Source of the DNA: a phage | Sequence record: PX104380.1 | Direction: 5' to 3' (one strand) | DNA: 64,000 bases | Shown: piece after piece, positions 35,853-39,502 of the stretch | Layout of the letters: the number at the start of each line of letters is the position of its first letter | How positions within the stretch are numbered: the first letter of the stretch is position 1 | The notes under the pieces: generated by a model | What the model saw: only the letters and a program-made list of their open reading frames with translations | Databases searched by the model: none | What the model was told of the DNA's origin: nothing | Translations under genes and position numbers: made by a program

Positions 35853-36065
35853 TCATTTTTGTCCTGTATTTACTTTATGCCGATGCACGGCCTTAACTTT
35901 ATCAAGGTATTTTTCAAAATTTCGCAATCTAGTATAGTCTGCCGGAGATTGGTTGAGTGATACTTCTCGACGCAAAGCTGAAATGATATTTCCAACTTCC
36001 CTACGAATTTCATCTAATTGAAGCACAGTAAGATTGCGAAGTTGCTTTTCAGTTAATTGTAGCAT
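35853..36065 (-). CDS. small helical protein (rI.1-like; possible family member)
   Basis: 70 aa; [12 protein letters not shown]...FEKYLDKV. Confidence 0.5.
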
Positions 36066-36107
36066 ATATACCCCTTTAGTTAGATAAACCTATTTATAAC
36101 TTTTGCA

Positions 36108-36689
36108 CTAACCGAGCTTTTTAGTTAATTCGTTCCAGTGTTTTCTACACAAAGAAACATAAATTTCATCACCAATACAGATTTGATTACCTTCTTTAAC
36201 TGGTGTTCCATCTTCCATTAATCGAGCTGTCATAATCGCTTTTTTGCCGCAATGACAAACTGCCTTTAGTTCAATAAGTTTATCTGCAATCGCTAAAAGT
36301 TCTTTAGAACCTTCAAACAATTTTCCAGCGAAATCAGTCCTTAACCCATAAGCCATAACAGGAACATTATATGTATCAACAATTCGACTCAATTGATGCA
36401 CTTGTTCAGTTTTTAAAAATTGGGCTTCATCTACAAATACGCAATGAATATCTTTTTGTGCTTCAGCCCATTTATAGAACTCGAAAATATCCATATCATC
36501 TGTAATAATATTCGCTTCCTGTTTAATTCCAATGCGAGAAACAACTTCACAGACAGAATCACGAGTATCAATAGCAGGCTTAAGAACTAATACACTCATT
36601 CCACGTTCTTTATAATTATGTGCAGCAGTCAAAAGAGAAGCAGATTTTCCAGCATTCATTGCTGCATAAGTAAAAATTAAACTCGCCAT
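36108..36689 (-). CDS. tk: thymidine kinase
   Basis: 193 aa, same length as T4 Tk; P-loop AAMNAGKS; C-terminal Cys cluster. Confidence 0.9.
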   Translation of the reverse strand: MASLIFTYAAMNAGKSASLLTAAHNYKERGMSVLVLKPAIDTRDSVCEVVSRIGIKQEANIITDDMDIFEFYKWAEAQKDIHCVFVDEAQFLKTEQVHQLSRIVDTYNVPVMAYGLRTDFAGKLFEGSKELLAIADKLIELKAVCHCGKKAIMTARLMEDGTPVKEGNQICIGDEIYVSLCRKHWNELTKKLG

Positions 36690-36690
36690 C

Positions 36691-36879
36691 TTAGTCCTTA
36701 GTTAAATTTTCTAAATATGTTTCTAAATCATTTTCAGCTTTATCGATAGATTTTACTAATTCGTAATATGTTTCGGCATCTCCATATTCAGAAGATATTT
36801 CAAAAGACAAATCCTTTTCTAAACTAATAATTTCACCAACTAAAAATAATATTTCGTTCTTTTGTTCGCGAGTAATCAT
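36691..36879 (-). CDS. small helical protein (tk.1-like, family member)
   Basis: 62 aa; MITREQKNEILFLVGEI...LETYLENL. Confidence 0.5.
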   Translation of the reverse strand: MITREQKNEILFLVGEIISLEKDLSFEISSEYGDAETYYELVKSIDKAENDLETYLENLTKD

Positions 36880-37061
36880 AAGGAATTTATATAATCAATG
36901 AGTTCTTGTTCTTTATTATCAAATTCTTTGGAAAGTTCTTCATATTCATTTGCGCTAAAAGGACCGCATTCATTACAAACTTTTTCCAATTCACTATTTT
37001 TATCCATAATTTCGTGGATAAGAGAAAAGAGTTTGTCTTTTTGTTCTTTGCTTAGGCTCAT
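36876..37061 (-). CDS. small helical protein (tk.2-like, family member)
   Basis: 61 aa; MSLSKEQKDKLFSLIHEI...LIDYINSL. Confidence 0.5.
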   Translation of the reverse strand: MSLSKEQKDKLFSLIHEIMDKNSELEKVCNECGPFSANEYEELSKEFDNKEQELIDYINSL

Positions 37062-37231
37062 ATATTAATTTCCAGAAGTTTTAAAATAATTCGCTTTTGC
37101 TTAAATATTTCCACAGTTAAATGATCAGTATCTTTTTGACCAATTCCAATGGCAAAACCTTTATTAACAGCGAGTTCAATTAAATTATCAAGTTCACGTA
37201 ACACTTCATATTGTAACTCAGAACTATTCAT
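37058..37231 (-). CDS. small helical protein (family member, 57 aa, below track cutoff)
   Basis: Hand-translated MNSSELQYEVLRELDNLIELAV...; ATGA overlaps at both ends. Confidence 0.4.
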   Translation of the reverse strand: MNSSELQYEVLRELDNLIELAVNKGFAIGIGQKDTDHLTVEIFKQKRIILKLLEINI

Positions 37232-37455
37232 TTCGGTTTACCTTCTTTAACGAAATCTGGATAAGGATAAAATCCCGAATAAAATCCTTCACCTTTATGA
37301 TTGATGCATCCTTTATTAGAACAATAGCACCAATAATCGAAATCACAAGCCATTTCATCGTTACATAAAGCAAAAACAACCGGCCACTTACACTTTTCAC
37401 AGTGGGCATTTTTAAGAATACTAGTTTGGCTCATAACCATGTAACCTTTAAGCAA
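37228..37455 (-). CDS. Cys-rich small protein (probable zinc binding)
   Basis: 75 aa with CEKCKW and several further Cys/His. Confidence 0.45.
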   Translation of the reverse strand: MLKGYMVMSQTSILKNAHCEKCKWPVVFALCNDEMACDFDYWCYCSNKGCINHKGEGFYSGFYPYPDFVKEGKPK

Positions 37456-37643
37456 TATTCTTCTACATGTTGTTTACGACCTTTCTTATCAATAAAGGTA
37501 TATTCAACGAATGTTCCAATGTAGTCTTTATCTACATCATGTGGACTATTAATTGGGCATTTAGTACGGCAAATGCGTTCCCATTGACGAATAATTACTG
37601 CTTTGTTTTTAGGATCAAACGGATGTGGGTAATGTACTTTCAT
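37431..37643 (-). CDS. hypothetical protein
   Basis: 70 aa track ORF. Confidence 0.45.
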   Translation of the reverse strand: MKVHYPHPFDPKNKAVIIRQWERICRTKCPINSPHDVDKDYIGTFVEYTFIDKKGRKQHVEEYCLKVTWL

Positions 37644-38094
37644 AATCCACCACTATTAAATCAATATCAGGAGTAAACATGTCGATTAATTTAGAAACCT
37701 TATCCCAATCGCCGCCAGCAATACCACAACCTATACGTGGAATGTAAATTACTGGTTTAAACAAAAGGGTTTCTGCCTGTAGATTTAATTCTATCATGCA
37801 GTTTACTAAAGCACCATAATCAAGATTAGGACCTGGTTCGTATTGCGTATACAAGTTATAACATATGCCAAACCCATTAGGTTTATGTTTAAAAACAATA
37901 GACATATCGCCTAATTTATCACGAGAACCGTACTCAGTAGTGGTTTTATCTATTTCTAAAATTTTGGGATAGGCTCTTGCTAATTGACCAGCTACACCAC
38001 TGCCCATTGTATGAAAACAGTTACACCCGTGCGCAATAATATTACCTTCAAGAAAGAGGGCGACAATATCGCCCTTGATATATTTTACAATCAT
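37615..38094 (-). CDS. macro-domain (ADP-ribose binding/processing) protein
   Basis: 159 aa; IKGDIV, IIAHGCNC and MGSGVAGQLARAYP resemble macro-domain GDIT, VNAAN and GGGVxGAI motifs. Confidence 0.55.
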   Translation of the reverse strand: MIVKYIKGDIVALFLEGNIIAHGCNCFHTMGSGVAGQLARAYPKILEIDKTTTEYGSRDKLGDMSIVFKHKPNGFGICYNLYTQYEPGPNLDYGALVNCMIELNLQAETLLFKPVIYIPRIGCGIAGGDWDKVSKLIDMFTPDIDLIVVDYESTLPTSV

Positions 38095-38438
38095 CTAGTA
38101 CTCAATCCTCGATTATAAGAATCTACTAAACGGTCAACCATTGAATGACAAGCGGCTTTATCTTTTTCCTCCGCAACTGAACATTCTAGGGTATTCCACT
38201 TTTTAGCATATCGTTTTAATAATGTATCGTTTTTGTATCTGCTTGATTTATCTCTTTCTCCGTCTTTATATGCATATATTAATTTCTGCGCAAATTCAGC
38301 TTGGCATGCTTTATTTTTCCCGCAATAATCTGCCGCAGTGCGGTTCACATACTCCCTAATTTCAGTATATGATGTATCTGCTGACGCATAAGCAGAAAAT
38401 GAAATTAATCCTATACATAAAACCAAAATTTTAGTCAT
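38091..38438 (-). CDS. secreted Cys-containing protein
   Basis: 115 aa; N-terminal signal peptide. Confidence 0.5.
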   Translation of the reverse strand: MTKILVLCIGLISFSAYASADTSYTEIREYVNRTAADYCGKNKACQAEFAQKLIYAYKDGERDKSSRYKNDTLLKRYAKKWNTLECSVAEEKDKAACHSMVDRLVDSYNRGLSTR

Positions 38439-38976
38439 TTACTATTTCCAAAAGTTTATTATTTTTAAGGTAATTAGCCTTTTCTAGGACTTCAGAAGCA
38501 TATTTAGAACCTGCTTTAACATTCCATCCCGAATTATAAGAGGATATTGCTTTTCTTATATCGCCCTTATGTATATTTAACCAATAAGAAAGTTCAATGT
38601 ACGCCCAGGAAGCTGAATTGGATCGTTTATTCAACATTCTTTTTATTTCAGCATCGGTCATATTATAACCAAGTTCCTTAACTCTCGCTCGCATAGTAGG
38701 CAAATAATTTTGGAACATTCCGTAAGCATGATGTTTTGGTTTAGATTTTAAATTAACTCCGCCAGAGCTTTCTTGCCATAAAATAGCAGCCATTATATGA
38801 CCTAATCCGCTCTTGTGGATATTTTTGTGTGTTTTATATTTTCCATCCTTAGAAAATTGTTCCCCGAATTGATACGCGTAACGCATGTTATCGAGTTGGA
38901 CATTACTGAAAGTATGCTCGGAGCTATGTGCCATCATTGAAATGGCCAATAGACCAGCGAGTAGTGCTTTTCTCAT
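38431..38976 (-). CDS. secreted protein with lytic-transglycosylase-like motif
   Basis: 181 aa; signal peptide; AILWQESSGG resembles the SLT catalytic E-S motif. Confidence 0.45.
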   Translation of the reverse strand: MRKALLAGLLAISMMAHSSEHTFSNVQLDNMRYAYQFGEQFSKDGKYKTHKNIHKSGLGHIMAAILWQESSGGVNLKSKPKHHAYGMFQNYLPTMRARVKELGYNMTDAEIKRMLNKRSNSASWAYIELSYWLNIHKGDIRKAISSYNSGWNVKAGSKYASEVLEKANYLKNNKLLEIVND

Positions 38977-38983
38977 GTTTACC

Positions 38984-39445
38984 TCATTGAGTTTTAATTA
39001 CTGCTTTAGAAGCCTTTCCTGGTAAACGACGACTGTTGATAATTGCCATCCTACATTGAAGTGACGGGTCTTTGAACTTCTCATTAGGTTTACAAACTGT
39101 AAATCCAAGCCAAAGATTTCCATCTGTAATTTCTAAACGTCCAGGACGATATTCAACTCCATCAATAAAATCCTCATCAATGTCAGGACGCGGAGGCATA
39201 CTCAGGAATTCATTAACTTCTAAAACATGGTCTTTTATTTTATGGAATAATTCAAAAACATATGTCTCATCAATCTCCCGTTGAATTGCACGATCAAGAA
39301 GATGTTGAGAATATTTTAGATGAAACGATGAGACCCCTGCTGCTTTTGATGCCTCACGAATCTCATTGTTAATTTGACGAAACTCCGACTCAAAGTGACG
39401 ACGAAGCTTATTTCGACGGATAAAAACTTCTGTATTGATAGTCAT
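38984..39445 (-). CDS. regB: RegB site-specific endoribonuclease
   Basis: 153 aa, same length as T4 RegB; ATG at 39443-39445 behind an early promoter. Confidence 0.7.
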   Translation of the reverse strand: MTINTEVFIRRNKLRRHFESEFRQINNEIREASKAAGVSSFHLKYSQHLLDRAIQREIDETYVFELFHKIKDHVLEVNEFLSMPPRPDIDEDFIDGVEYRPGRLEITDGNLWLGFTVCKPNEKFKDPSLQCRMAIINSRRLPGKASKAVIKTQ

Positions 39446-39472
39446 GTTATTCTCCTCTTAACTGATAGAAAA

Positions 39473-39502
39473 ATTATACCACAGTCAAGAGGAAAAGTAA
39501 AC
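39473..39502 (-). promoter_or_regulatory. T4-type early promoter (-10 TATAAT)
   Basis: Plus attata at 39473-39478 and agtaaac at 39496-39502. Confidence 0.5.

Follow-up and report, generated by a model that had tools for sequence, protein, structure and literature searches.

A divergent allele of the macrodomain gene tk.4 (adfM) in a Tequatrovirus genome and its probable role against DarT2-type toxins

The window analyzed here is a stretch of 64,000 nucleotides of phage DNA (sequence record PX104380.1), and the gene under study, tk.4, is located on its minus strand between tk.3 and vs, within the interval from tk to regB in which a reading of the sequence alone (the sequence-only reading) had correctly placed it. 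The order of genes at the locus is tk, tk.1, tk.2, two extra small open reading frames, tk.3, tk.4, vs, vs.1, and regB. The window is that of a Tequatrovirus, as positions 36000-39500 are 100% identical to Escherichia phage vB_EcoM_G4507 (Tequatrovirus), where the identical open reading frame is annotated as a 'macro domain protein', and match a number of further listed Tequatrovirus genomes at ~97-98% identity. The gene itself, which ends in a TGA stop codon (37615-37617), is as follows:

37615..38094, minus strand: coding sequence of tk.4/adfM, a single-domain macro protein of 159 residues (from the list of open reading frames, Pfam Macro, the G4507 annotation, synteny with T4, and 58% identity to T4 Tk.4)

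In phage T4 (NC_000866) the gene that lies between vs and tk.3 is tk.4, which encodes 155 residues and carries the annotation 'phosphatase; contains A1pp phosphatase motif'. The window protein and T4 Tk.4 share 58% amino acid identity in a gapless alignment over all 155 residues, and synteny and alignment make the window open reading frame and T4 tk.4 positional orthologues. It is an already known gene of a known kind, and an A1pp/macro match of tk.4 orthologues was reported as early as 2006 (PMC1524935). The two proteins have in common the locus between vs and tk.3, a single domain (155 and 159 residues), and all of the residues that are invariant in the family, including N25 and Q84, but they differ in the allele that makes up the body of the gene, in the second ligand-binding loop (AGG in the window, GKG in T4), and in the C-terminus, which in the window is four residues longer and overlaps tk.3.

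The sequence-only reading had called the product a macro domain, and this is borne out by Pfam, PHROG, and PDB searches, by an AlphaFold2 model, and by Foldseek. Pfam Macro (PF01661) matches residues 22-136 at profile positions 2-117 of 118 (E=6.2e-08, 33.1 bits against a curated gathering cut-off of 22 bits), and PHROG 335 matches with E=1.6e-71. In a PDB search with the single sequence the best match was BT1257 of Bacteroides (1.9e-10; 2FG1/2AFC), to which the identity in the structural alignment is only ~26%, followed by yeast Poa1p (1.8e-09), SCO6735 of Streptomyces coelicolor (8.6e-08), DarG of Mycobacterium tuberculosis (1.4e-05), and human TARG1 (~9e-03). When the search was carried out with a family profile of 82 Tk.4 family members, the order was BT1257 (1.9e-19), TARG1 (2.2e-16), SCO6735 (1.2e-15), Poa1p (6.9e-15), and DarG (8.6e-12), and the viral macrodomains (coronavirus nsp3, alphavirus) and the MacroD-type enzymes reached only ~3e-03. 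The structure prediction that had been proposed as a check, made from an alignment of 81 sequences with the T4 row left out, likewise gave the macro fold, with a mean predicted local distance difference test score (pLDDT) of 93.8, a predicted template modeling score (pTM) of 0.88, and alternating strands and helices. Foldseek found 171 PDB matches to this model at E<=0.001, and the top ones, all of them macro domains or macro-based designs, include TARG1 (4j5r), Poa1p (6lfr), BT1257 (2fg1), and DarG (5m31/5m3i), with query-normalized template modeling (TM) scores of 0.67-0.77 and a ranking that agrees with that of the family profile. Judged from these profiles and the predicted model, window Tk.4 is a macro domain of the TARG1/DarG/SCO6735 ('ALC1-like') class. 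Its binding of ADP-ribose is predicted from the conservation of the glycine-rich loops 1 and 2.

The residues that define the putative ligand-binding and active site map to the following positions:

38017..38031, minus strand: codons of H22-G23-C24-N25-C26, with N25 as the counterpart of the Asn residues N22 of DarG and N23 of PhiKZ AdfM
37990..38007, minus strand: codons of M30-G31-S32-G33-V34-A35, phosphate-binding loop 1, which aligns with MGAGIA of TARG1
37843..37857, minus strand: codons of N80-L81-Y82-T83-Q84, where Q84 takes the position of the catalytic Lys (TARG1 K84, DarG K80), which is Gln85 in SCO6735
37705..37740, minus strand: codons of P119-RIGCGIAGGD-W130, diphosphate-binding loop 2, with A126 where TARG1 has the catalytic D125

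The three strings on which the sequence-only reading was based are all present in the translation (GDI, residues 8-10; IIAHGCNC, 19-26; and MGSGVAGQLARAYP, 30-43), and their assignment was correct, in that the string resembling VNAAN contains the family-invariant Asn25 and the string resembling GGGV is phosphate loop 1. Conservation was assessed in 81 relatives and, in addition, in 120 phage or metagenome sequences and 80 bacterial sequences (200 in total); the bacterial set was picked by the motifs HGCNC and G[CA]G[IL]AGG[DN]W, such that conservation of these strings in that set is partly by construction. Invariant or nearly so are H22-G23-C24-N25-C26, M30-G31-x-G33-x-A35, D49, N80-x-Y82-T83-Q84, and, in loop 2, P119-x-I121-G122-x-G124-x-A126-G127-G128-x-W130. 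H22, G23, N25, and C26 are invariant among the 81 relatives and in all covering sequences of the 120 and the 80, G33 and A35 of loop 1 are invariant and its M30 and G31 are conserved at >=90%, and Q84, N80, and Y82, which are absent from the search patterns, are invariant in 200 of 200 sequences. N25 aligns with N23 of the PhiKZ macrodomain AdfM, which is the stated equivalent of Thermus aquaticus DarG N22 and whose replacement (N23A) reduces activity (PMC13309987).

In the family-profile alignment Q84 stands opposite K84 of TARG1, where the BT1257 column is also Gln (the TARG1 sequence used was checked against the PDB, 334.8 bits over 151 residues), and it is assigned to the position of DarG Lys80 by way of TARG1 K84 and a published structural alignment (PMC9411070). 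An alignment of four sequences by MAFFT, with PhiKZ AdfM and TARG1 among them, was unreliable in its middle region and was dropped for residue equivalences. In SCO6735, which lacks both of the TARG1 catalytic residues and the Lys of DarG, the equivalent residue is Gln85, and the Q85A form is inactive; the enzyme nonetheless strips ADP-ribose from thymidine in single-stranded DNA at a higher efficiency than either DarG or TARG1, and it also rescues cells from DarT (PMC9411070). Loop 2 points in the same direction, as the window string PRIGCGIAGGDW is nearly identical to PRIGCGLAGGTW of SCO6735, the corresponding strings being PRIGCGLAGGKW in BT1257 and PRIGCGLDRLQW in TARG1; the alignment to SCO6735, obtained with a C-terminal fragment as the query, covered loop 2 only. 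By these residue correspondences the Tk.4 family is a Gln-type member of the TARG1/DarG/SCO6735 class, and its mechanism would be expected to be of the SCO6735 type rather than covalent or general-base catalysis by a Lys.

Each of the known enzymes resembles window Tk.4 in some respects and departs from it in others. SCO6735 (PDB 5E3B) and BT1257 are, like Tk.4, stand-alone proteins with Gln in place of the catalytic Lys and a PRIGCG[IL]AGGxW loop that is almost the same, but the Tk.4 family has its own H-G-C-N-C signature, and Tk.4 is encoded by phages, with a probable use in counter-defense. SCO6735 uses K89/K93 of an extended basic mobile loop and Lys34 for DNA binding, and its K89, K93, and Val25 could not be mapped onto the Tk.4 family; the window loop Y85-EPGPN-L91, in a region without residue alignment to 5E3B, contains no lysine. 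DarG, which is the DarTG2 antitoxin (T. aquaticus, 5M31/5M3E; M. tuberculosis, 5M3I), shares the macro class (TM 0.73), the Asn at N22, and, by prediction, the function of a DarT2 antagonist, but window Tk.4 has Gln in place of Lys80, lacks the C-terminal DarT-binding domain, and has no adjoining darT. TARG1 (OARD1) is the best Foldseek match (E=1.4e-09, query-normalized TM 0.73, target-normalized TM 0.82) and also cleaves thymine- and uracil-linked ADP-ribose (PMC13036486), but its catalytic dyad K84/D125 is replaced by Q84/A126. PhiKZ gp104, also named AdfM, is another stand-alone phage macrodomain that counters DarTG2 and has the Asn of the first loop, and it removes DarT2-installed ADP-ribose from DNA in vitro, with N23 and K78 as its putative active-site residues (Morgan et al., Cell Rep 2026, PMC13309987). 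It differs in being a true DarG-like protein with a catalytic Lys78, and its BLASTP match to window Tk.4 is marginal (E=0.001 over 23 residues).

The 'phosphatase' and 'Poa1p-like' annotations of tk.4 go back to Poa1p (6LFQ-6LFU), the yeast ADP-ribose-1''-phosphate phosphatase, which raises the alternative that the protein acts on a small ADP-ribose derivative, as a phosphatase of this type or an O-acetyl-ADP-ribose deacetylase that tidies NAD metabolites with no role in defense. RefSeq and PHROG carry the phosphatase label, as does the A1pp annotation of T4 tk.4, and Poa1p, which gave the second-best match to the single sequence (E=1.8e-09), shares with Tk.4 the fold (TM 0.77) and the H-x-C-N-C string, in which the invariant H22 aligns with H23, a residue mutated according to the PDB entry titles (6LFS/6LFT). 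The sequence likeness is, however, mostly in the N-terminal half (best stretch 3-79), and S30 of Poa1p, which is also mutated in those entries, falls in the column of T29, which is variable in the family (T, A, N, L, V, Q). The phosphatase label was carried over from the 2006 domain match and is not a measured activity (PMC1524935). A small-molecule substrate also contrasts with the T4 orthologue, which has a specific DarTG2 phenotype in the defense of DNA, and because TARG1-class enzymes that act on small ADP-ribose esters act on nucleic-acid ADP-ribose as well, the activities are not exclusive. A purely metabolic enzyme is hence quite improbable.

That phenotype comes from a recent preprint, in which a T4 transposon library was grown on a host expressing DarTG2 and only tk.4 came out as a significant hit; a clean tk.4 knock-out was sensitized to DarTG2, and the gene was named adfM, for anti-DarT factor Macrodomain (bioRxiv 10.1101/2025.11.20.689424). 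The authors noted the structural similarity of Tk.4 to M. tuberculosis DarG and, of an enzymatic release of ADP-ribose from DNA, wrote that it 'seems likely' (bioRxiv 10.1101/2025.11.20.689424). Resistance to DarTG2 had previously been found to be kept by T2 and T4 lacking adfN and by T4 lacking both adfA and adfN (PMC11825919), and the tk.4 knock-out closes the gap that this had left. The sequence-only reading had suggested that the protein might reverse ADP-ribosylation of DNA by the host and that a deletion mutant be plated on a host carrying DarTG. The first idea agrees with the genetics of the T4 orthologue, a 58%-identical allele, and the second is an experiment already published for T4 tk.4, with the sensitization just described. 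Neither the divergence of alleles nor the Gln-type active site is stated in the sources found.

Taken with the macro fold and the SCO6735-like active site, these data make it probable that window Tk.4 binds the ADP-ribose placed on thymine of single-stranded DNA by DarT2-type toxins, cuts the bond between ribose and base, and restores a template that can be replicated. In this scheme tk.4 would be expressed before or during DNA replication, as the gene order in T4 suggests, and a DarT2-type toxin of the host would ADP-ribosylate thymine in single-stranded phage DNA. Binding of the ADP-ribose by Tk.4 would then involve loops 1 and 2, with Gln84 positioning the distal ribose and a water molecule and with no direct catalytic Lys, as in the SCO6735 route. 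Hydrolysis of the ribose-base bond would release ADP-ribose and restore replicable DNA, and the phage would thereby be resistant to DarTG2. The role against DarTG2 is thus carried over to the window protein from a 58%-identical allele, and hydrolysis as the mechanism and thymidine-ADP-ribose as the substrate are likewise to be read as predictions.

Several points weigh against this assignment. The evidence for T4 tk.4 is purely genetic, with no Tk.4 enzymology in the preprint (bioRxiv 10.1101/2025.11.20.689424), and a literature search found no paper with Tk.4 enzymology and none with a DarTG2 test of the window allele. The phages for which DarTG2 data were found in the literature (T2, T4) have the other allele, as does T6. 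The public 'phosphatase' annotation points to a small-molecule substrate, and window Tk.4 is without both of the catalytic residues of TARG1 and the Lys of DarG. The equivalence of Q84 to SCO6735 Gln85 comes from the TARG1 alignment and the published structural alignment, without a direct residue alignment. In addition, scores against DarG models are low. DarG is the only PADLOC match and the best NCBIfam match of window Tk.4, but the match is limited to positions 2-145 of models of ~330 positions (the macro half), with 27.8 bits against a cut-off of 250 for NCBIfam NF048014 and 27.7 bits for PADLOC DarG, a model to which PhiKZ AdfM scores 132.9.

The allele carried by the window sets it apart from the phages in which the gene was studied:

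37615..38050: island of allelic divergence, with 35-80% of nucleotides identical to T4 (sliding 60-nucleotide profile and pairwise alignment)

The flanking genes (tk.3, vs, vs.1, and regB) are 90-100% identical to T4 at the nucleotide level, mostly 95-100%, and the edge of the island is sharp on the 3′ side, at the tk.4/tk.3 junction, and more gradual on the 5′ side, within the first ~50 codons. The middle of the gene appears too diverged for drift in place, and the window allele was therefore most likely gained by recombination, to judge from the alignment. By megablast this allele is present in 338 phage records, 306 of which cover at least 80% of the segment, and the T4/T2 allele is found in ~224 records at >=90% amino acid identity and in a further 159 at 80-90%; T2 Tk.4 is identical to that of T4, and T6 has the T4-type allele. 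At residues 126-127 of loop 2 the window allele has A-G, the family consensus, and the T4 allele has G-K, and for this reason the window allele would seem, if anything, the more canonical enzyme of the two. The T4-type allele (T4 tk.4, L002:4423-4890) deviates at positions that are ~90% or more conserved across the family, and in T6 tk.4 (L086:3138-3605) loop 1 also has MKAG for MGSG (G31K, S32A).

Such divergence might mean that the two Tk.4 alleles are functionally non-equivalent, each being tuned to other DarT2 variants or to another ADP-ribosylated substrate (for example, thymine of DNA versus uracil of RNA), so that the locus would be an exchangeable cassette for counter-defense that uses the Gln/water chemistry of SCO6735 in place of the DarG mechanism that the name AdfM would suggest. 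The tuning could come about through direct contact with the toxin or through the change in loop 2 (AGG versus GKG). We regard this extended proposal as rather unlikely. An island of 35-80% identity between flanks of mostly 95-100% is also a pattern frequent in arms-race genes, and the divergence could accordingly be attributed to co-evolution with DarT2 variants if Tk.4 neutralized the toxin mainly by binding to it, as a stoichiometric mimic of the antitoxin. There are precedents for this, in that the catalytically dead Q85A form of SCO6735 still inhibits DarT in vitro, more so than dead DarG or TARG1 (PMC9411070), and AdfB of phage ICP1 counters DarT by direct interaction (PMC11481870). Window Tk.4, however, is without the C-terminal DarT-binding domain of DarG, and N25, G33, A35, N80, Y82, Q84, G122, G124, and W130 do not vary in either the phage or the bacterial members, the latter having no DarT neighbor. 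Invariance of ligand-binding and catalytic positions in bacteria that have no DarT next to the gene argues for selection on ADP-ribose chemistry, and a role mainly in binding the toxin has little probability.

The bacterial relatives comprise at least 503 loci from many phyla (a scan of one genome per species), with best identities of 34-43%. The 80 loci that were kept (L006-L085) contain stand-alone homologues, often amid ordinary-looking genes, and no conserved partner gene such as DarT was found next to the 80 homologues beyond lineage-restricted synteny, the largest cluster being 9 of 80. Other recurrent neighbors, judged by eye, are ordinary, for example a large protein resembling an aminoacyl-tRNA synthetase or an RNA polymerase subunit, and there is no toxin-like neighbor at the Pelagimonas locus. 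An origin of Tk.4 as an orphaned DarG antitoxin was rejected on these grounds. Since its bacterial relatives are stand-alone, Tk.4 seems not to be a DarG antitoxin that was captured; rather, from the comparison of loci, the family looks like a stand-alone macrodomain lineage that was recruited by phages and not a DarG that has lost its toxin.

Two other uses of the same chemistry can be envisaged. In one, Tk.4 would reverse ADP-ribosylation of RNA or protein, brought about by other toxins of the host or by the phage enzymes Alt, ModA, and ModB. T4-like phages encode ADP-ribosyltransferases, which were not located in this window and which count in favor of this possibility, but Alt and Mod modify arginine, which is unusual as a macrodomain substrate. 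Reversal of the phage's own Alt/Mod modifications was rejected, as nothing was found in its support. TARG1, DarG, and SCO6735 do remove ADP-ribose from uracil of RNA as well (PMC13036486), and SCO6735 also acts on proteins (PMC9411070). On the other hand, no phenotype or assay that supports this activity was found, and CmdTAC, a system that ADP-ribosylates mRNA, still restricts T4 strongly (PMC11618068), from which it follows that Tk.4 does not neutralize CmdTAC. A main role on RNA or protein is thus very unlikely. In the other, which the sequence-only reading had also put forward with Thoeris in mind, Tk.4 would degrade or sequester ADP-ribose-derived immune signals, for example the glycocyclic ADP-ribose (gcADPR) of Thoeris. 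What speaks for this is the general binding of ADP-ribose-like ligands by macro domains, but the literature search found no support for it and no link between this class and cyclic ADP-ribose signals, and the T4 gene scored on DarTG2 in the screen. Of all the alternatives this is the least probable.

The analysis confirms a stand-alone macrodomain, probably directed against DNA ADP-ribosylation, in T4-like phages, which also have AdfN, a NADAR enzyme active against DarTG1. By its active-site residues the Tk.4 family would be mechanistically nearer to SCO6735 than to DarG, and its bacterial relatives are stand-alone. The name AdfM now spans two different macrodomain subfamilies, those of T4 Tk.4 and PhiKZ gp104. 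The widespread 'phosphatase' annotation of tk.4 is likely to be misleading. The 58%-identical allele is present in hundreds of the Tequatroviruses sequenced to date, among them BASEL phages such as AndreasVesalius, whose protein is 98.7% identical to that of the window, and their resistance to DarTG2 should not be assumed.

The gene overlaps both of its neighbors:

38091..38094, minus strand: the stop codon of vs and the ATG start of tk.4, overlapping as ATGA (open reading frame coordinates and sequence; T4 has the same junction)
37615..37643, minus strand: overlap of 29 nucleotides between the 3′ end of tk.4 and the start of tk.3 (a 13-nucleotide gap relative to T4; C-terminal tail ...YESTLPTSV)

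The tail YESTLPTSV of window Tk.4 recurs near-identically, as YESPLPTSV, in the relative P0007 of phage EcWhh-1, and is hence a feature of the allele group rather than a sequencing error. Directly upstream of tk.4 is vs (38091-38438, minus strand), which encodes the valyl-tRNA synthetase modifier, and the genes regB-vs.1-vs-tk.4-tk.3 are closely packed on one strand. The ATGA overlap suggests translational coupling within a regB-vs.1-vs-tk.4 gene string, which would be co-transcribed. Upstream of regB, at 39501-39473, is a promoter-like site from a promoter scan that overall was not above chance (14 sites versus 15.9 expected). Within codons 7-13 of tk.4, at 38057-38075, an 8-bp GC-rich hairpin, AGGGCGATATTGTCGCCCT, is followed by a T-rich run and was flagged as terminator-like on both strands by a scan; T4 has the identical stem sequence, and the hairpin may be a by-product of coding for K-G-D-I-V-A-L. 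In the transposon study that identified tk.4, the adjoining vs was the most depleted T4 gene in minimal medium (bioRxiv 10.1101/2025.11.20.689424), such that two neighboring genes of the string have conditional phenotypes. The two extra open reading frames between tk.2 and tk.3, one of 57 residues (37058-37231, minus strand; phrog_3452) and one of 68 residues that is Cys-rich (37228-37434, minus strand; phrog_2306), are not in T4 and are present in T6 as the pair RB32ORF110c/111c.

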